Assembly: GCF_051487185.1 (NCBI RefSeq) | Contig: NZ_JAHVDK010000007.1 | Span: forward strand, 158,241 to 190,240 | Direction of reading: 5' to 3' | Length of the DNA stretch: 32,000 nucleotides | Source of the DNA: Inquilinus limosus | GTDB lineage: Bacteria; Pseudomonadota; Alphaproteobacteria; DSM-16000; Inquilinaceae | Shown: one piece after another, positions 24,323 through 31,262 of the stretch | How the letters are laid out: each line of letters opens with the position of its first letter | Position numbering within the stretch: the stretch's first letter is position 1 | Notes under the pieces: generated by a model | What the model was told of the DNA's origin: nothing | The model's input: the letters and a program-made list of their open reading frames with translations, nothing else | The model's database searches: none | Program-made: the position numbers and the translations under genes

Positions 24323-24524
24323 TGCCGATCACCTCAGAAGCTGCTCCAAGCACAGTGCTGCGAAGGGCATTGATCCGATTGAGAAATCCCCCTGCGACAG
24401 CACTCCAAAAAACTGCATGGCCGCAAAAATATCAGCCGGATCAAAGGCTTACCCATCCACCAGCCACACCCTTTTATCTCGCCGTAGCTCAAAAGTTGTT
24501 TTCACTCTCTCGGATACGCAACTC

Positions 24525-24560
24525 GTAGTAGTAGGATATCGCAGCCCGTCGGGCTGCATC
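24525..24560 (-). other. candidate oriT (inverted repeat plus nick-core-like sequence)
   Basis: The - strand reads GCAGCCCG-A-CGGGCTGC followed directly by GATATCCTAC. It lies in the 334-bp lower-GC spacer upstream of the relaxase gene. Confidence 0.45.
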
Positions 24561-24656
24561 GCGGTGTTGGGCCAGTACCCGCCCGGCAGCGCTGCTGAGC
24601 GCTGAATGCAGAAGGCGGGAGCGGCACCCTGGGCACCGCCCCCGCCGTGGAGAGGC

Positions 24657-24941
24657 CTAGTCGATGAGAGCGAGCCGCTTCTGGGCGGTCAGGATCTCGA
24701 CGACGGTGGAGCTGTCGCGGGCCTCACCCTTCAGCTTGGCGGCGTGATCCCAGGGCCCGAGATTCTCGACCACATCGTCGAAGTTGTCCTCCTCATCGTA
24801 GTCCGGACCGGGCAGGTAGAGCGGCGCCCGCTTGCACGCCGCGATGGCGTTCTCGAGCCGGCGGATGAGGGCGAAGGCCTCCCGCCGATCATGCCAGTAG
24901 GCGTCGGTGCCCGGGATGAGACGGGATGATGCGATGGTCAT
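24657..24941 (-). CDS. hypothetical small protein (94 aa, acidic central patch)
   Basis: The ATG at 24941 lies 7 nt after AAGGAG and gives MTIASSRLIPGTDAYWHDRREAF...PDYDEEDNFDDVVENLGPWD. I recognise no family. Confidence 0.6.
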   Translation of the reverse strand: MTIASSRLIPGTDAYWHDRREAFALIRRLENAIAACKRAPLYLPGPDYDEEDNFDDVVENLGPWDHAAKLKGEARDSSTVVEILTAQKRLALID

Positions 24942-25238
24942 CGGAACGCTCCTTGGTTGACGTCCTCCGCGTCGAGGACGTGTCCCGGGCTCGGCCGGCG
25001 GAGCGGCCGTCAAGGACGCCGGAGGCGCCGCGGAGCGGGGCGTGGGGGAGCCGAAATGCGTCAGCATTTCGGGGGGACCACGCCTCCTTGACGGGCGTTT
25101 CGTCCCGGCTGACAGGATGAGACGACCGAGACGAGAGAGGGGTTGGAGCAGGCCTCTCCAGGTGCGTCGGTCAGTCGCCGGATGGCGGGCGCGACGCTCG
25201 ACGAACGCCGCGCCCGATGCGCTTGGAGCTGTCTGCGA

Positions 25239-25436
25239 TCAGCTTTCCGGATGCCGATAGGCTGCAGCACGGCGGCGCCGCGGTCGCGTGTCGAACAGCG
25301 CGTCGAAGGCGCGGTCGAGCTCCGCCTGGCGGGCGATCGCCTGCGCGAGCTCGGTCTCGGCCGCACTCCGCTCGCGGCGGGTCAGATGGCAGTGGAGCAA
25401 CTCGGCCTCGAGCTCGCGGATGTGGTCGTGGAGCAT
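25239..25436 (-). CDS. hypothetical small coiled-coil protein (65 aa)
   Basis: The ATG at 25436 follows GGAGAGG and gives MLHDHIRELEAELLHCHLTRRERSAAETELAQAIARQAELDRAF. The upstream part of track ORF 25239..25622 looks non-coding. Confidence 0.5.
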   Translation of the reverse strand: MLHDHIRELEAELLHCHLTRRERSAAETELAQAIARQAELDRAFDALFDTRPRRRRAAAYRHPES

Positions 25437-25709
25437 GGTCCTCTCCGTCCCAAGTCTGAAGACGGGAGGTGCGACGCATGCCGGGACGGGCCGGGTCGTG
25501 GATCGCCGCAGGCGACCGGCTGGCCGGCGAGCGGGGGAGCCGATTTTGTCGAGCGGGACGACAGACCGGCGCGCGCAGCGCGCACCTTGCGCTCGGCAAA
25601 ATTGGGGGGACCGCTCGTCCACGACGCGGCCCGTCCCGGCATGGGAGAGTGGGCGATCCGAAGAGACGGCCTTTCTCTCCGATGGGGCTCCGTCGGTGCC
25701 GCCGCGCCA

Positions 25710-26357
25710 TCAAGGTGTCGACTTCCGCGCCGTGCTCACCGGGACGAACAGGCCGCCGGCCGACGACGGCCGGAATGCCGCCCCTCGGCCGGTGCCATGC
25801 AGGTCGACGAACAGGCTGACGGTGGATGCGATCGCGGTCAGACGCTGCCGTGCCACGTCCGCATGGCCGAAGGCCGCGAGATAGGCCTGCGTCTCGGCCG
25901 GCAGAGCCCGGCCCTCCGACAGGTGCTCGTCCATATGCCGCGGGCCGGCATTGTAGGCAGCGAACAGGCCGGGATAGCCGTAGCGGTCGTGCATCTCGCG
26001 GAGATAGGCGGCGCCGGCCTGGATGTTGTCGCGCGGATCATAGGGATCGGCACCGAAGCCGTAGCGGCCGCGCAGTTCGGCCCAGGTCTCGGGCATGATC
26101 TGCATCAGCCCCATGGCGCCCTTCGACGAGACGGCATGCGAATCGCCGCCGCTCTCAACCCGCATTACAGCGCGGATCCATGACTCCGGCACGCCGAAGC
26201 GCCGCGATGCCTCGGCGATGTTGGCCGACCAAAGGTCTTGCGCCCTCGCTGCGATGCTGCTCGCGAGCTCGGCACGGACAGGGATCGCCCATGTGCAGAC
26301 ACAGAGCAGGATGGCTGCGGCCAACCGGCCCCGGCGATGGCTGCCGATCGGCGTCAT
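25710..26357 (-). CDS. lytic transglycosylase (SLT domain)
   Basis: It has a signal-like N-terminus and the SLT motifs VMRVESGG, GLMQIMP and AAYNAGP. Confidence 0.9.
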   Translation of the reverse strand: MTPIGSHRRGRLAAAILLCVCTWAIPVRAELASSIAARAQDLWSANIAEASRRFGVPESWIRAVMRVESGGDSHAVSSKGAMGLMQIMPETWAELRGRYGFGADPYDPRDNIQAGAAYLREMHDRYGYPGLFAAYNAGPRHMDEHLSEGRALPAETQAYLAAFGHADVARQRLTAIASTVSLFVDLHGTGRGAAFRPSSAGGLFVPVSTARKSTP

Positions 26358-26872
26358 CGCCGTCCCTCATATGTCCAGAGCGGCGCCGCGCGGCCGACGA
26401 TCGAGGCGACCGGCACAGGCCCGAAATACCGCCCGTCGAGCGAGTCCGGGACGCCCCGGTTCATGAGGAAGACCTCACGGTCGCCGAGCAGCCGGCAGCC
26501 CTGCCAGACGGGCAGCGTCCGGCCGAGCCGATCGCGCCCGAGCGCCCGTCCGACGGCGACGCCGTCGATCAGGATCCGGAGACCATCGCGGCAGATGGTG
26601 CTGCCCGGCAGCGCGGCGACGCGCTTCAGCAGCGGCACGCCGGCCGGCAGGTAGCCGCGATCGGCGAAGAGCGGGACGAGCGCGGCCGGCGCCCGCGCGA
26701 GCACGATGTCGCCGACGGCGAGACGGTCAACTGTGTGCACGCGGTAGAACCCGACCGGCAGGCTCGCCGAGGCGTTCCAGACGAGGCGCGGCACCGGCGG
26801 GCCGACCGCTGGGCCTGCGATCAGACTCACTCCGGCGAGCATCGCGGCCAGAACAGCGATACGCGCCCTCAT
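26354..26872 (-). CDS. traF: S26-family signal peptidase, conjugative TraF type
   Basis: 172 aa. Supporting sequence: VWNASASLPVGFYRV, LLKRVAALPG, and DSLDGRYFGPV. Confidence 0.88.
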   Translation of the reverse strand: MRARIAVLAAMLAGVSLIAGPAVGPPVPRLVWNASASLPVGFYRVHTVDRLAVGDIVLARAPAALVPLFADRGYLPAGVPLLKRVAALPGSTICRDGLRILIDGVAVGRALGRDRLGRTLPVWQGCRLLGDREVFLMNRGVPDSLDGRYFGPVPVASIVGRAAPLWTYEGRR

Positions 26873-27333
26873 GCTTCGATCCTCCGGCGCTTGAGCCAGG
26901 CGGCATGCCGCTCACGGCTGTAGGGCCGCGGCTCGAAGCCGGCGCTGAGGCGGTTGTGGACGTGCCGCCAGTGATCCGGCGCCGCGTCAGCCGGATCGAT
27001 CCGGAGCGCCAGGACCGCGTCGATCGCCTGCAGCACGTGCTCGATCTTCGGCCAGCCGGACTGGCGGAGCAGGATCTCGGCGCCGGGCCGCACATGCGGC
27101 ACCGTCGCGCAGCCCTCGCCCGGCGCCACCGCTCGCAGGATGTCGATGCGCGAAACCCCGGTGCCGAGATCGGTCGCAGCCCAGCGCAGGACGGCGAAGA
27201 CGCTGCCGGGCGCGAAGGACAGGACGCGCCGATGCTGATCGACGGCCGCCTCCGCGACCGGCCGGCCGAAGCGGAGCCAATGCTCGATCCGCCGGTGCAG
27301 CCGCAGCAGCTCGAGTCGGGTGAGATCGCTCAT
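26869..27333 (-). CDS. DUF2840 domain protein
   Basis: 154 aa. Its sequence (MSDLTRLELLRLHRRIEHWLRFGRP...) and its position between the RHH/ParA genes and traF match the conserved backbone gene as I recall it. Confidence 0.7.
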   Translation of the reverse strand: MSDLTRLELLRLHRRIEHWLRFGRPVAEAAVDQHRRVLSFAPGSVFAVLRWAATDLGTGVSRIDILRAVAPGEGCATVPHVRPGAEILLRQSGWPKIEHVLQAIDAVLALRIDPADAAPDHWRHVHNRLSAGFEPRPYSRERHAAWLKRRRIEA

Positions 27334-27554
27334 GATGCGTCTCCGGTCTCGTCGGATGCGGGGAAGTGCCGCGCGAGCAGGTCGCGCAGCAGATCGGCGA
27401 CGGTGACGCCCTGGCGGTAGGCCGCGATCTTGATGCGGCCGCGCAGCTCCGGGGTGACGTCGATGGTGAGCCGGGCGGTGAAGGGTCTGCGCGCCTCCGG
27501 TGCCCGGATCCAGGCTTCTGGGCTGCGCGGCCGCTTGGCGAACGGCCGGCTCAT
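27330..27554 (-). CDS. ribbon-helix-helix protein (ParG/CopG-like partner of ParA)
   Basis: 74 aa. RLTIDVTPELRGRIKIAAYRQGVTVADLLRDLLARHF is an RHH pattern. It overlaps the parA stop by 4 nt. Confidence 0.72.
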   Translation of the reverse strand: MSRPFAKRPRSPEAWIRAPEARRPFTARLTIDVTPELRGRIKIAAYRQGVTVADLLRDLLARHFPASDETGDAS

Positions 27555-28189
27555 GGCATCAGCCTCTCGATCTCGGCGGCGAGCATGCGGATCTCGCGGA
27601 CGGCGATCCGGCTGCGCGGGAACTCGCCGACGAGGCGGCCGCTGCGGGCGGCGTCGGCGAAGGCGACGCGCTGGCCGATGCGCACGGCGAGCGCCGGCGG
27701 GTCGGCCCTGGCGAGCGACATCGCGGTGTCGTGCGCGATCACAGTGCCGGCACCGCAGCGGTTCAGCAGGAACCGCGCCAGCAAGTCGGGCCGGAACTGC
27801 CGCGCCTCCTCGAGCAGCCGGAGCGTCTCGGCCGAGGCCCAGCCGTCGAAGGGCGAAGGCTGGACCGGGATCAGCACGAGGTCGGCAGCGAGCAGCGCCG
27901 AGCGCATCAGCGCGGCGACGCGCGGCGGCCCGTCGATGACGATGTGGTCGACGCCGCGGGCGATTTCCGGCGCCTCCCGGTGCAGCGTGTCGCGGGCGAG
28001 GCCGATGACGCCGAAATGTCGCGGCCGGCCGGCCCGCGCCCGCTGCTCGGACCAGTCGAGCGCCGAGCCCTGCGGGTCGGCGTCAATGACGGTGACGCGC
28101 CGGCCCTGGCGGGCCCACTCGCCGGCAAGGTGCAGGGCGAGCGTGGTCTTGCCGACGCCGCCCTTCTGGTTGAGCAGCGCCACGATCAT
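27551..28189 (-). CDS. parA: ParA-family partition ATPase
   Basis: It has the deviant Walker A MIVALLNQKGGVGKTT, plus VIDADPQGS and IVIDGPP. Confidence 0.93.
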   Translation of the reverse strand: MIVALLNQKGGVGKTTLALHLAGEWARQGRRVTVIDADPQGSALDWSEQRARAGRPRHFGVIGLARDTLHREAPEIARGVDHIVIDGPPRVAALMRSALLAADLVLIPVQPSPFDGWASAETLRLLEEARQFRPDLLARFLLNRCGAGTVIAHDTAMSLARADPPALAVRIGQRVAFADAARSGRLVGEFPRSRIAVREIRMLAAEIERLMP

Positions 28190-29229
28190 GGCGGGCCTCG
28201 ACGGGCAGCGACGGCTGCACTCCGGAGCGCACCATCATCAATGTTAGAGTTTTCTAAGTTAGACTCTAAGTTACGGGCGCCGATCTCGTTGGCAGACCAA
28301 AGACTTAGCTGGGTTCCGTGCGCCTGATGTACCGATAGCGCCGCGCCCGAAGTACCGATACCCGCTGCGCCCGATGTACCGAGTGCAGTCACAGGCTTAT
28401 CCACCGATTCTGTGGATAAGTCGGGGCCTCCGGTGGGTATAACCCATAGCAGGCCGCCCGCCTCGAAAACCAGCCGATAGCCGGGCAGCGGCTGGCGGGC
28501 GGCGATACGGCGGAGGTCGAGGGCGAAGTCGGACAGCCGGGCCAGGCTGCCGGACTTGGCGTGGAGATGGCGGACCTCGAAGGCCCAGCCCGAGGGCTGT
28601 CGGCCGGCATGCTTGCGGGCGACCCGGTAGAGCCAACGCTCGATCCCGCCCGTCAGCCGGAAGTACGCCGGGTCGATGGTCAGCACCAGCGAGCGGTCCA
28701 GCACGCCGCGGTAGAACCAGTCCGGCAGCACGAATTCCATGCCGCGGCAGCGGCCGAAGCCGTCGACCAGCTCCTGCCATTCGCCGATCCAGGAGAACTG
28801 GTGCCGGCGCCAGTTGGGACCCTGGCGGATCGTGGTCAGCACCACGGTCGACTGCAGCCGCTGCAGCGCCGCCTTGAGGAGCCGGTATTGGCGGAAGCCG
28901 GTGTCCCGGCCGGTCGCCCGCAGGATCTGGTACGGCGTGAAGCGCAGGAAGCGCGAGGTGCGGAGGCCATGATCAGCAGCCTCGACGATCTGGGTCGCGG
29001 CCCAGATCAGGATGTCGGCGTCCCAGATGGTCGCCATGCCGTGCTCCGGCACGGCGTAGATCTGCACTTCCGTCTCACCGGCCTGATAGAGGATCGGCCG
29101 GGTGCGCCGGCCCTTGGCCAGCGAGAAGAAGGGCCGCTCCATCAGGTCGCGCTGGTCGCGCGGGCTGACGCCGTCCCCGGGCAGCGCCACGAAAGGATCG
29201 AGTGTTGCCCGCTCGGGGAGACTGGTCAT
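28186..29229 (-). CDS. repA: replication initiator protein A (RPA family)
   Basis: 347 aa. Supporting sequence: RDLMERPFFSLAKGRRTRPILY, ATIWDADILIWAATQI, and ERWLYRVARKHAG. The stop shares ATGA with the parA start. The C-terminal tail is encoded by repeat-rich DNA. Confidence 0.88.
   Translation of the reverse strand: MTSLPERATLDPFVALPGDGVSPRDQRDLMERPFFSLAKGRRTRPILYQAGETEVQIYAVPEHGMATIWDADILIWAATQIVEAADHGLRTSRFLRFTPYQILRATGRDTGFRQYRLLKAALQRLQSTVVLTTIRQGPNWRRHQFSWIGEWQELVDGFGRCRGMEFVLPDWFYRGVLDRSLVLTIDPAYFRLTGGIERWLYRVARKHAGRQPSGWAFEVRHLHAKSGSLARLSDFALDLRRIAARQPLPGYRLVFEAGGLLWVIPTGGPDLSTESVDKPVTALGTSGAAGIGTSGAALSVHQAHGTQLSLWSANEIGARNLESNLENSNIDDGALRSAAVAARRGPP
28253..28273. repeat. tandem TCTAAGTTA repeats (12-bp period) in an AT-rich island
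   Basis: TCTAAGTTA occurs at 28253-28261 and 28265-28273, and TTAGA/TCTAA inverted arms lie at 28244-28257. This is the only AT-rich patch in the area and sits just upstream of the parA start. Confidence 0.6.
28326..28385. repeat. three iteron-like direct repeats (GA[T/A]GTACCGA, 23-24 bp period)
   Basis: GTACCGA occurs at 28329-28335, 28352-28358 and 28376-28382, each with the shared flank (C)CGA[T/A]. Confidence 0.6.
28396..28420. promoter_or_regulatory. inverted pair of DnaA-box-like sequences
   Basis: The sequence is CTTATCCAC-N7-GTGGATAAG. The + strand reads TTATCCACC (28397-28405, 8/9 to the consensus) and the - strand reads TTATCCACA (28411-28419, 9/9 to the TTATCCACA consensus). Confidence 0.55.
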
Positions 29230-29522
29230 CGTCCCCTCCCCGGCTCGGGGCGATCGGCGTATTGCGGTGCCACCGCGGCGTGGCGCTTGGCCGGCAGCAC
29301 GGTGTCGGTGCCGGGATCCGAGGTAGAGCGCTTGGCGCCGCGGTCGGCCCAGGCCTGAAGGTCCTCGATGGTGTAGACGACGCGGCCGCCGATCTTGCGG
29401 TATCGCGGGCCGGTGCCGTAGGTGCGGTGCTTCTCCAGAGTTCTGCCGGACAGGCCGAGGAAACGCGCGGCCTCGGGCGTCCGGAGAAAGCGCGGCGGCA
29501 TTCCGGCCAGAGGGTCAGGCAT
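29226..29522 (-). CDS. helix-turn-helix DNA-binding protein, excisionase/MerR-like (possible recombination directionality factor)
   Basis: The ATG at 29522 gives MPDPLAGMPPRFLRTPEAARFLGLSGRTLEKHRTYGTGPRYRKIGGRVVYTIEDLQAWA, an HTH_17-type pattern. It is the first gene of an ATGA-coupled chain. The ATG at 29501 is an alternative start. Confidence 0.72.
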   Translation of the reverse strand: MPDPLAGMPPRFLRTPEAARFLGLSGRTLEKHRTYGTGPRYRKIGGRVVYTIEDLQAWADRGAKRSTSDPGTDTVLPAKRHAAVAPQYADRPEPGRGR

Positions 29523-29619
29523 GGTCGGGCTCCGTGATCTTCGGGAAGGCCGCCGGACAGGGCGGCCGGTCGAAGGCCACGGTGGCGAAGCGCCGCCGCG
29601 CGGGCGGATGGCGAAGACC

Positions 29620-29642
29620 GGGGTGGCGACAATCGCCACCCC
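29620..29642 (-). terminator. GC-rich hairpin after the DUF2285 gene (terminator-like, no clear U-tract)
   Basis: GGGGTGGCGA-caa-TCGCCACCCC is a perfect 10-bp stem. It lies 9 nt downstream of the stop at 29651. Confidence 0.4.
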
Positions 29643-29650
29643 GGCTGCTT

Positions 29651-30193
29651 TCAGCGTCGGGGCCCGAGCAGCCGGCGATAGCCGCCGCGCATCAGGGCCA
29701 GGCCGGAGCGGACGAGACGGATGGTCCGGTCCCGGATCGACGAGGTCTTCCAGCTTTCCTCGCAGACGCGGTCGGCGCCGAACAGCACTTCGGCGATCTC
29801 GCGATAGCTCGCGCCCTCCGACCGTCCGTCGAGGGCGCGGAGCGACGCGACAAGGCGCGCCCGTCGCTGCGTCGGCAGGATCGGCGGAGCCTGTGGTCGT
29901 CCCTCGCGAAGCAGACGCCAGAAGCGAAGCGTCGCTTCGGCTCGAAACGGTGCTGTCACGTCCAGCGAGAGGGCCGCATCAACGGTGGTGCCGCGGGCCG
30001 GAGGCCCCGGCAGCCAGAGGCGATGCGTGCTGCGGCCATCGCGCAGCAGCAGATGCAGGCCATCCGCGCTCCGGCGTTCGGCAACGGCGCCGAACCAGGC
30101 GTCGGGATCGAAGACGATGGCGTCGGTCGGAGGATCAGGGAGGGAGGGGGTCAGAATCACCGTGCGGACGTGCAGCTCGGGCAGCCAGAACAC
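29651..30193 (-). CDS. DUF2285 domain regulator, C-terminal portion of a split gene (frame is open up to 30235)
   Basis: The C-terminal block is SLRALDGRSEGASYREIAEVLFG...GGYRRLL. The track start is a GTG with no obvious RBS. The upstream in-frame sequence reads PFLADPRRRASEQPVFWLPEL. Confidence 0.75.
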   Translation of the reverse strand: MFWLPELHVRTVILTPSLPDPPTDAIVFDPDAWFGAVAERRSADGLHLLLRDGRSTHRLWLPGPPARGTTVDAALSLDVTAPFRAEATLRFWRLLREGRPQAPPILPTQRRARLVASLRALDGRSEGASYREIAEVLFGADRVCEESWKTSSIRDRTIRLVRSGLALMRGGYRRLLGPRR

Positions 30194-30416
30194 AGGCTGC
30201 TCGGAGGCACGCCGGCGCGGATCCGCCAGAAAAGGTCAGCCCCCAGCGCCGGGCGAGGTACGCAACCTCGGCCTCGGGGCCGAGAGCCTCCTTCCCCTGC
30301 GCGCGCTCGTAGTCGCTCCGATACTCCGGATACCGCCGCAACGCCTCCCAGGCGAAGTCCGGGGCATCCAGATTGGAGTCGTAGGCGGCCCGTGACCGCC
30401 AGTCGCCATGTGGCAT
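30135..30416 (-). CDS. DUF6499-like N-terminal portion of the split DUF2285 regulator
   Basis: The ATG at 30416 follows GAGGGAG and gives MPHGDWRSRAAYDSNLDAPDFAWEALRRYPEYRSDY...ARRWGLTF. After that the frame yields an Ala/Arg-rich tail that looks non-native. Confidence 0.7.
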   Translation of the reverse strand: MPHGDWRSRAAYDSNLDAPDFAWEALRRYPEYRSDYERAQGKEALGPEAEVAYLARRWGLTFSGGSAPACLRAACVLAARAARPHGDSDPLPP

Positions 30417-30608: not shown

Positions 30609-30863
30609 TCAGCCTTTGCGCAGGAGCTCGCGATAACCTTGGGCGCTGAGCCAGCGGGCCCGGGCGAGATGGCTCTCATGGCATTTGCGGACGCGCTCCG
30701 GATCCCGCTCGGGATCGAGGCCGAGCACAATCCTGGCGACCTCGCGCCAGTCTGCCGCCTCTTCCGCCGCGTCGAGCAGCCGGAGATAATCCACCAGATG
30801 CTCCCGGTCGTAATCGGTCAGCTCGTCGCCGGTCGGCGCCGTATCGGCAAACGAAGGAGCCAC
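30609..30863 (-). CDS. stand-alone DUF2285 domain protein (QseM-like candidate antiactivator)
   Basis: 84 aa with a GTG start after GAGGGGG. LVDYLRLLDAAEEAADWREVARIVLGLDP...AQGYRELL parallels the C-terminal domain of the neighbouring DUF2285 regulator. Confidence 0.7.
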   Translation of the reverse strand: MAPSFADTAPTGDELTDYDREHLVDYLRLLDAAEEAADWREVARIVLGLDPERDPERVRKCHESHLARARWLSAQGYRELLRKG

Positions 30864-31015: not shown

Positions 31016-31037
31016 AACAGACGGCTTGTCTGCATGC

Positions 31038-31262
31038 ATGGACATGCGCAAGCTGGTGGCCCGCAACCTCAAGAAATTCCGCATCGACGCGGACCTGTCT
31101 CAGGAGGAGCTGGCAGAGCAGTCCGGAGTCGATCGCACGTACATCAGTGGGATCGAGCGCGGTGTCCGCAATCCAACAATCGTCATGCTTTGGCAAATCG
31201 CGTCCGTATTGAAGATCGAGCCTTGGCAACTGATCCATCCGGACTCGACGGCAGACGAGTGA
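31038..31262 (+). CDS. XRE-family helix-turn-helix repressor (QseC-like candidate)
   Basis: The sequence (MD)MRKLVARNLKKFRIDADLSQEELAEQSGVDRTYISGIERGVRNPTIVMLWQIASVLKIEP is an HTH_3 pattern. The track ORF starts at TTG 31026; ATGs lie at 31038 and 31044. Confidence 0.85.
   Translation: MDMRKLVARNLKKFRIDADLSQEELAEQSGVDRTYISGIERGVRNPTIVMLWQIASVLKIEPWQLIHPDSTADE

Follow-up and report, generated by a model that had tools for sequence, protein, structure and literature searches.

An iteron-type replication origin is predicted in the translated 3' end of repA in a Tn4371/ICEMlSymR7A-like element of Inquilinus limosus

Where in an integrated element would a plasmid-type replication initiator find an origin to act on? 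The question arises at a locus in a 32,000-nucleotide (nt) stretch of the Inquilinus limosus genome (contig NZ_JAHVDK010000007.1, positions 158,241 to 190,240; hereafter the window, whose numbering is used throughout), in which the gene for a replication initiator, repA, runs directly into the partition gene parA. The pair belongs to an integrative and conjugative element (ICE) of the Tn4371/ICEMlSymR7A superfamily. Such ICEs are very common and carry catabolic, resistance and other genes as cargo. Their repA-parA pair has so far been termed a "stabilisation" module, and the papers that we searched define no origin for it. A first-pass annotation, made from the letters of the window, had placed an oriV-like module inside the 3' coding end of repA, and this proposal held in every computational test applied here: selection at the DNA level, concerted iterons, comparison with relatives, a pVS1-type plasmid, and plasmid pGD02. 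We put at roughly 75% the probability that 28238-28420 is the iteron-type origin of vegetative replication (oriV) of an RPA/pVS1-type replicon carried by a Tn4371/ICEMlSymR7A-like ICE, a reading that is drawn from sequence comparison.

The repA gene (28186-29229, minus strand; 347 codons) encodes an RPA-family replication initiator and carries the module in its 3' end. The elements listed in the first-pass annotation were all recovered: an AT-rich repeat with a 12-bp period, three direct repeats with a period of 23-24 nt, a dyad holding one perfect and one 8/9 DnaA box, and, enclosing them all, the repA reading frame, whose stop is fused to the parA ATG as ATGA (28186-28189, minus strand). Read along the coding strand, the module opens with the dyad CTTATCCAC-N7-GTGGATAAG at 28396-28420, in which the perfect DnaA box, TTATCCACA, occupies 28411-28419 on the minus strand and the 8/9 box 28397-28405 on the plus strand. 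A third half-site, CTGTGA (28389-28394), follows 12 nt downstream and completes a DnaA-box-like cluster (28389-28420), in which the dyad can be written TTATCCACAG-N3-CGGTGGATAA. DnaA boxes with at most one mismatch number three in the whole window (1.0 expected), and two of the three sit in the dyad. The direct repeats, or iterons, have minus-strand 17-nt cores of the form TCGGTAC[A/T]TC[A/G]GGCGC[A/G] at 28366-28382, 28342-28358 and 28319-28335, with start-to-start spacings of 24 and 23 nt (Tandem Repeats Finder: period 24, 2.7 copies, score 91). With up to three mismatches the 17-mer occurs in the 32-kb window at these three sites only (0.40 expected by chance), and no extra copy, such as an operator upstream of repA, was found there at that tolerance. 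The AT-rich repeat TCTAAGTTA lies at 28253-28261 and 28265-28273; on the coding strand it reads AACTTAGAGTCTAAC (28258-28272), followed by a second TCTAAC. The block as a whole (28238-28273, minus strand), comprising the near-invariant AACTTAGAnTCTAAC and the second TCTAAC, is a candidate DNA-unwinding element. It contains the palindrome TTAGA-n-TCTAA (28259-28269) and, within that, a GANTC site (28262-28266). GANTC is the CcrM methylation site of Alphaproteobacteria, and its N is the sole freely varying base of the TTAGAnTCTAA motif; the second TCTAAC repeat also holds GANTC in most homologues, and beta- and gammaproteobacterial (hereafter beta/gamma) versions keep TCTAAC without GANTC. Over 28200-28450 the GC content drops from about 0.73 to 0.55-0.57.

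Chance counts from a single window are only moderately persuasive. The elements are taken to be real because every one of them is conserved in 76 homologous loci. We gathered 80 such loci, nearly all from Alphaproteobacteria, codon-aligned 76 of the repA genes and computed codon-position entropy on 32 representatives with less than 90% amino-acid identity to one another. The consensus on the repA strand consists of TTATCCACAG-N3-CCTGTGGATAA, CTGTGGA 12 nt further on, three ATCGGGACTTCGGGCGCA iterons, a spacer of about 45 nt, and then the near-invariant TAACTTAGAnTCTAAC and a second TCTAAC. Spacing of the iterons by 24 and 23 nt is identical in the 76 alphaproteobacterial loci and in the beta/gamma loci. 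The cores CCACA/TGTGG/TGTGG of the DnaA-box-like sites are conserved in 45/76. The comparison of RepA homologues that the first-pass annotation had called for, on whether tail and repeats co-vary, thus came out in its favour: all elements are conserved in the 76 loci and the iterons co-vary within elements.

The same alignment indicates that the last ~230 bases of repA are selected as DNA rather than as protein. Within the RPA domain (residues 24-253), entropy at codon positions 1/2/3 is about 0.32/0.23/1.0, the pattern of ordinary purifying selection on a protein. Over the tail (residues 273-331) it is 0.62/0.74/0.75, with no periodicity and with third positions better conserved than in the body of the gene. 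The distal tail (residues 332-347; 28189-28236, minus strand), variable in sequence and length yet always in frame, reaches 1.4-1.6 at every codon position, so that its sequence is unconstrained. GC content at third codon positions (GC3) falls from 0.90 in the body of the window repA to 0.53 in its tail; means over all loci are 0.84 and 0.50, with the tail lower in 76/76. TTA codons make up 3 of 62 tail codons versus 1 of 3,676 codons in the other ICE genes of the window. In the AT-rich block most columns are invariant among the 32 representatives; this extends to third codon positions and holds even though it entails the rare codons TTA and TCT.

The iterons point the same way. Their three copies do not share one reading frame: two translate as GTSGAA, and the third, in a different frame, as SVHQAH. 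Positions 6, 9, 13, 14 and 17 of the iteron vary between elements, and at these positions the three copies agree in 30-31 of 32 representatives. Copies are more alike within an element (identity 0.90) than is the same copy between elements (0.78). The iterons thus evolve in concert across two reading frames. The translated tail (residues 270-347; 28189-28422, minus strand) is predicted to be disordered, with an AlphaFold2 confidence score (pLDDT) of 25-34. Because codon periodicity is lacking, GC3 is low, the iterons change in concert across frames and the peptide is predicted to be disordered, we regard the tail as conserved for its DNA. An odd C-terminal tail encoded by the repeats had been pointed out before; this is borne out, and the peptide is best read as a by-product of DNA motifs. 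What passes for a "C-terminal domain" in thousands of annotated RepA proteins would accordingly not be a protein domain.

RepA relatives that lack this tail carry the same module. In beta/gamma Tn4371-type elements RepA is about 60% identical to the window protein and ends early, leaving a repA-parA spacer of 250-289 nt that is annotated as non-coding. This spacer holds a CTGTGGAT-type box, three TCGTGCTATCAGGAGTA iterons at 24/23-nt spacing, three (C)TCTAAC/TAAC repeats and a further GGTGGACAA. A Sphingopyxis/Rhodopseudomonas clade likewise has a short RepA, with the same arrangement downstream of the repA stop. The box beside the first iteron is CTGTGGAT in 2/5 of the beta/gamma spacers, CTGTGAAT in 2/5 and GTGTGGAC in 1/5, and the CTGTGGAT or CTGTGAAT type is kept beside the iterons in three clades with different iterons. 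Because clades with completely different iterons share this box, it is probably a host-factor site beside initiator sites specific to each element. At the end of repA itself, the beta/gamma loci (L081-L085, for example L081 3300-3330) have an invariant ACGGCACGGGGATAA directly after a 9-bp GC hairpin. Their -1 frame is open from the end of repA to parA, and a -1 frameshift at CGG GGA TAA could yield a long RepA; a small GTG-initiated open reading frame (ORF) bridging the spacer is the alternative.

The arrangement also recurs on plasmids. In the pVS1-type plasmid NZ_MF564290.1, with a RepA that shares 99.6% identity with that of pVS1, the repA stop is directly followed by CCTGTGGATA, by four 15-nt CGTACATTGGGAACC iterons set 21 bp apart and by three copies of an AT-rich repeat, TAAAACTCTT; the motifs have the same order and orientation as in the window. 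An inverted iteron copy, CCGGTTCCTAATGTACGG, overlaps the repA stop codon of this plasmid (L086 3033-3050), and an 11-bp perfect palindrome lies between that copy and the DnaA box. Pseudomonas, Agrobacterium and Rhizobium all support the pVS1 minimal replicon (PMC5799272). We identify the module as an oriV because it occurs alike in the Tn4371-type spacers and in the pVS1-type plasmid, with a box that is common to the clades.

An informative natural case is pGD02 (pGDIPal5II), which Gluconacetobacter diazotrophicus PAl5 carries as a circular plasmid of 16,610 bp (PMC2765452). Its long-form repA of 351 amino acids, in which box, iterons and TCTAAC repeats are embedded, precedes parA and the gene for a ribbon-helix-helix (RHH) protein, and neither its annotation nor Pfam scans of unannotated ORFs revealed an integrase or another recognisable initiator. 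The plasmid appears from its gene content to live on the repA-embedded module alone. In the PLSDB database, plasmids with such a repA (NC_010123.1, NC_002682.1, NC_008757.1 and others) bear the MOB-suite replicon label "IncP" or "rep_cluster_2238"; pGD02, with a long-form repA as its sole initiator, is typed "IncP", so the label appears to mean an RPA-type rep gene. On pMLb (L096) and a Paracoccus saliphilus plasmid (L102), parA and the RHH gene have been lost while the box or a variant of it, the iterons and TCTAAC are kept, and the stop of the long repA ORF is fused through ATGA to DUF2840, which takes the place of parA. A Bradyrhizobium plasmid (L101) has a short repA, then a 455-nt spacer, with neither parA nor an RHH gene before DUF2840, and keeps iterons, box and TCTAAC beside repA; parA is not annotated in its PLSDB gene table, a table that is incomplete. 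Some ICEs of Tn4371/ICEMlSymR7A type appear to have become plasmids, pMLb being named among them (PMC8627217). An oriV within repA would help to explain such conversion, which pMLb and pGD02 appear to have undergone. The Ketogulonicigenium plasmid pYP1, considered as a further module-dependent plasmid, proved uninformative, having another initiator with ParAB and RepAB.

The protein expected to act on the module has the makings of an initiator. PF10134, "replication initiator protein A", matches RepA residues 24-253 (28471-29160, minus strand) with E=8e-82, and the predicted fold of this core is that of a winged-helix initiator. In an AlphaFold2 model built from a 33-sequence alignment, pLDDT is mostly 64-89 over residues 66-269, with dips to 46-48 near residues 131-140 and 181-190. 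Foldseek matched the model to RctB domains 2-3 (E=4e-8), a Rep WH1 domain (E=9e-4) and RepE54 (E=4e-3). A search of the RepA profile against the sequences of solved structures returned chance matches to ribosomal proteins only. By Pfam match and predicted fold, RepA is a winged-helix iteron-type initiator. Homologues fall into more than 7,000 clusters, the nearest being from Inquilinus at 88-91% identity. An RPA-domain RepA and an iteron oriV drive a mini-replicon in Sphingobium (PMC3516476).

Collectively, the locus offers what characterizes an iteron-type theta origin: a winged-helix Rep, spaced direct repeats, iterons specific to the element, an adjacent box, and an AT-rich side. The iterons, 17-18 nt long, two helical turns apart and element-specific, are most likely bound by the element's own RepA, and the AT-rich TCTAAC block is the candidate unwinding element. 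In the mechanism that we infer, RepA would recognise the repeats, DnaA would occupy the dyad, and the origin would be used once the element has excised. Induction of the rdfS-like-repA-parA operon would bring about excision together with RepA synthesis; RepA would load on the iterons of the circular form and open the AT-rich block with the help of host DnaA, after which ParA, with the RHH protein as its presumed partner, would partition the copies. In the alphaproteobacterial clade the repA ORF spans the whole predicted origin and leaves a 78-residue tail, predicted to be disordered, as a by-product of the DNA motifs.

That the frame is kept open across the module calls for its own account. 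In 74/74 alphaproteobacterial loci the repA ORF ends on the start codon of the next gene, with a junction of ATGA in 70/74, CTGA in 2 and GTGA in 2. The distance from the AT-rich motif to that start codon takes 16 distinct values, all of them 2 modulo 3, and in the distal stretch the other two frames are interrupted by stops in 27 and 36 of these loci. The short-RepA loci repeat the pattern without a tail. Across their spacers of 289, 265, 253, 250, 253, 208 and 208 nt, all 1 modulo 3, the bridging frame has 0 stops versus 2-7 in each other frame, a statistic that comes from seven partly related loci and is for that reason a weak point of the case (the Acidovorax p1-T1 and Variovorax loci, truncated or divergent, were left out). 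The open frame ends at the parA ATGA and stands in the same frame relative to box and iterons as the alphaproteobacterial tail. It defines an ORF of 71-92 codons (79-92 in beta/gamma), whose first start at or after the end of repA is a GTG within the conserved box (CTGTGGAT or CTGTGAAT). In Sphingopyxis/Rhodopseudomonas that codon and the repA stop are fused as GTGA, and in beta/gamma it lies 15 nt past the repA TAA. Judged by the reading frames, ribosomes thus appear to traverse the predicted origin in each of the three clades, whether as part of repA or along a bridging ORF, and the "intergenic" repA-parA spacer of the relatives is probably translated as well.

Such an overlap of a cis-acting DNA machine with translated sequence is unusual. 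The first-pass annotation had suggested that initiator translation, initiator binding and parA expression are physically interlocked, and the sequences lend support to this idea in that the ORF reaches the next start codon across 16 spacer lengths. Most likely, the open frame preserves an unbroken chain of 4-nt overlaps that links the operon. That translation across the origin is itself selected for a mechanistic reason seems doubtful. It might deliver nascent RepA in cis, the folded domain emerging from the ribosome while iterons and unwinding element are still being read, so that the tail or the bridging ORF would tether RepA over the origin; or ribosome and RNA polymerase traffic might gate firing, so that replication would be licensed only during expression of the excision operon.

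Several observations weigh against the oriV reading or qualify its parts. The assignment of the dyad arms to DnaA, made by sequence, is the weakest part of the interpretation. In one clade (12/76 loci) all three boxes have changed jointly to CAACA/TGTTG/TGTTA, and where repA ends in the beta/gamma relatives the dyad has an unrelated, GC-rich sequence, the palindrome CCCGTGCCG-CAGA-CGGCACGGG. At least for the dyad, host DnaA accounts for both facts less well than a hairpin or a dimer encoded by the element; the dyad may thus form a hairpin or bind a protein of the element's own, the iteron-adjacent box alone being common to the clades. (The changed-box clade comprises L039 and 11 related loci, for example L040, L045, L048, L073 and L078; pMLb also has TGTTGA.) The comparison with pVS1 carries the caveat that its oriV is reportedly placed just downstream of repA, in work by Heeb and colleagues in 2000 and in vector annotations. 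The argument from pGD02 rests on annotation and Pfam scans, and maintenance driven by its relaxase would be compatible with the same gene content. The inspected plasmid records that match the tail DNA or carry short-form relatives are all large replicons with an integrated ICE, and pYP1, one of these, has a second replicon of its own and is silent on function. Finally, iteron distance between elements correlates with RepA distance (Spearman rho 0.59-0.61) more strongly than with the distances of the RHH protein (0.49), ParA (0.43) or DUF2840 (0.35), a ranking that is confounded by physical linkage of RepA and iterons.

These reservations leave room for other readings of the same DNA. The module could be a relic or a domesticated RepA-binding site that serves control alone, through RepA titration or autoregulation, incompatibility or exclusion, or operon timing. 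In the literature searched, no ICE of the Tn4371/ICEMlSymR7A family is shown to replicate through RepA; the Mesorhizobium symbiosis ICEs have lost repA and still function (PMC8627217), and a chromosomal RepA with its cognate oriV can do harm, as in SGI1 (PMC7826253). We nevertheless consider this unlikely, given that strong constraint acts at the DNA level on all three origin parts in hundreds of elements, including an AT-rich block that a pure binding site would not need, that RepA is under strong purifying selection, and that pGD02 appears to rely on the module alone. It is also possible to see in the repeats a centromere and operator of a type Ib partition system, with the RHH protein binding the direct repeats and/or TTAGAnTCTAA for ParA-driven segregation and autoregulation of parA. 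Type Ib loci typically have a repeat-type centromere upstream of parA, and here a small ParA (212 amino acids) is followed by a 74-residue RHH protein whose distance also correlates with that of the iterons (at the rho given above); the near-invariant palindrome, too, looks like the site of a dimeric protein. Against this, iterons, box and TCTAAC persist beside repA on pMLb and the Paracoccus saliphilus plasmid without parA or RHH gene, and the Bradyrhizobium plasmid keeps the repeats with no parA annotated in its incomplete table. In the pVS1-type plasmid the module comes after repA and parA before it, and the iterons track RepA better than RHH protein or ParA, within the limits of linkage. 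A centromere in place of an origin is quite unlikely on this evidence, and one sub-element, for example the palindrome, may have a dual role besides that in oriV.

Readings that look to the gene products fare worse still. Were the tail a functional peptide, its GTSGA repeats and NLESN motif might mediate an interaction with ParA, DnaB or the relaxosome, for example; the ORF is indeed open in every alphaproteobacterial locus, and GTSGA, QLSLW and NLESNxESN are recognisable at the amino-acid level. Yet within the tail the third codon position is at least as well conserved as the other two, rare codons ending in A or T have become fixed, the third repeat co-varies with the other two although it encodes an unrelated peptide in another frame, and the tail is predicted to be disordered and is missing from short-form RepA, all of which makes a peptide function highly improbable. 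The least probable alternative is that the conserved sequence is an RNA element controlling parA translation, or an internal parA promoter with operator. The module does lie 50-240 nt upstream of parA, and the dyad can form a 9-bp hairpin; its inner 7 pairs follow Watson-Crick rules in 26-29 of the 32 representatives, and in one clade both arms have changed together. An RNA element was rejected, as the fold is not unusual (z = -1.42) and the region has no Rfam match, and no sigma-70-like promoter or terminator was predicted in 27900-29700. Moreover, direct repeats two helical turns apart and an AT-rich block are features of DNA, and the same architecture stands downstream of repA in a plasmid with parA elsewhere.

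Among known replicons, pVS1 offers a close parallel to the origin proposed here. It is the basis of the pME60xx and pPZP/pCAMBIA vectors. It shares a PF10134 initiator, the order and orientation of the module after repA (box CCTGTGGATA, iterons about two helical turns apart, AT-rich repeats), and a small ParA and a small downstream ORF that belong to the replicon. The iterons themselves are unrelated, the pVS1-type CGTACATTGGGAACC occurring in four copies at 21 bp and the window TCGGTACATCGGGCGCA in three at 24/23 nt, and the pVS1 origin is non-coding with parA upstream of repA, whereas the window origin is translated and lies between repA and parA. The beta/gamma ICEs of the Tn4371 family have the same backbone (HTH, repA, parA, small ORF, DUF2840, S26 peptidase) and, as set out above, a related RepA and a module at the same place with the same iteron spacing; they differ in a repA that stops 250-289 nt before parA, in a module annotated as intergenic though bridged by an in-frame ORF, in their iteron TCGTGCTATCAGGAGTA and in the unrelated GC-rich palindrome at the dyad. 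Ryan et al. (2009) described repA and parA of this family and no origin (PMC2789088).

SGI1 is a further close system, being an integrated element with a theta-type RepA and an oriV just 3' of repA (50 bp downstream). Its oriV is built of direct repeats and DnaA boxes, together with an AT-rich part that contains an inverted repeat, and replication, which is linked to excision, makes the element more stable (PMC7826253). Its RepA belongs, unlike that of the window, to an IncN2/N3-related family, its oriV is non-coding, and its function has been proven by experiment, whereas that of the window element is predicted from sequence. Origin DNA inside an initiator ORF, which characterizes the window type in 74/74 alphaproteobacterial loci, has precedents too. 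The lambda ori lies within gene O, and the origins of RepA_N plasmids lie within the initiator gene. The oriV of repABC replicons lies in repC, according to a preprint (bioRxiv 10.64898/2026.09.14.751567) that cites Pinto et al. (2012). In these systems the origin-encoded peptide is integral to the initiator, whereas the tail encoded in the window is an appendix, predicted to be disordered, that is missing in close relatives. Iteron origins are thus already known, as are initiator genes that contain an origin and integrated RepA-bearing elements that replicate once excised, such as SGI1. Neither an origin in Tn4371-type or related ICEs nor the motif TTAGAGTCTAAC is described in the literature searched, which did not reach Toussaint et al. 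(2003) on Tn4371. Relative to that literature, a complete predicted oriV between repA and parA of a large ICE superfamily and the apparently conserved translation across it are new.

The surrounding genes agree with an ICE backbone. Directly upstream of repA lies an HTH_17 gene for an RdfS/excisionase-like protein (29226-29639, minus strand), whose stop overlaps the repA ATG as ATGA. Downstream follow parA (27551-28189, minus strand), which encodes a small type-Ib-like partition ATPase of 212 amino acids with Pfam matches to AAA_31, CbiA and VirC1, and, after a 4-nt overlap with the parA stop, the RHH gene (27330-27554, minus strand). The RHH protein, a candidate centromere-binding partner of ParA, matches RHH_10 with E=7e-6 and 26.6 bits, slightly below the family cutoff of 27 bits. 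By Pfam, the minus-strand order is HTH_17, repA, parA, RHH, DUF2840, S26 TraF peptidase and lytic transglycosylase (SLT), and beyond the SLT gene the window holds a DUF3363 relaxase, TraG, TrbE, TrbL and TrbI. The Pfam matches comprise the gene set expected of the backbone, and synteny extends to pTTS12, pPNAP01, pYP1 and pGD02; the element that hosts repA and parA is, on this gene order, a Tn4371/ICEMlSymR7A-type ICE. In related ICEs, initiator and DUF2840 genes are located between rdfS and traF (PMC8627217). A 4-nt start/stop overlap joins each of the seven consecutive genes from HTH_17 to SLT (25710-29639, minus strand), which suggests translational coupling along the whole operon.

Three further features of the window lie outside this operon. 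Between the relaxase and SLT genes, the interval 24323-25709 has a single convincing ORF (24657-25067, with no Pfam match) and is a candidate for the origin-of-transfer (oriT) region. Upstream of the operon, a RovC_DNA-bd/DUF2285 ORF (29651-30193, minus strand) overlaps a Trans_reg_dom/DUF6499-like ORF (30135-30416) by about 59 nt in another frame. This pair (29651-30416) resembles the split FseA activator of ICEMlSymR7A, which is made by programmed ribosomal frameshifting. An 84-residue single-domain DUF2285 protein (30609-30863, minus strand) is encoded divergently from a 78-residue XRE-type HTH protein (31026-31262, plus strand), an arrangement that resembles the QseM antiactivator/QseC switch of ICEMlSymR7A.

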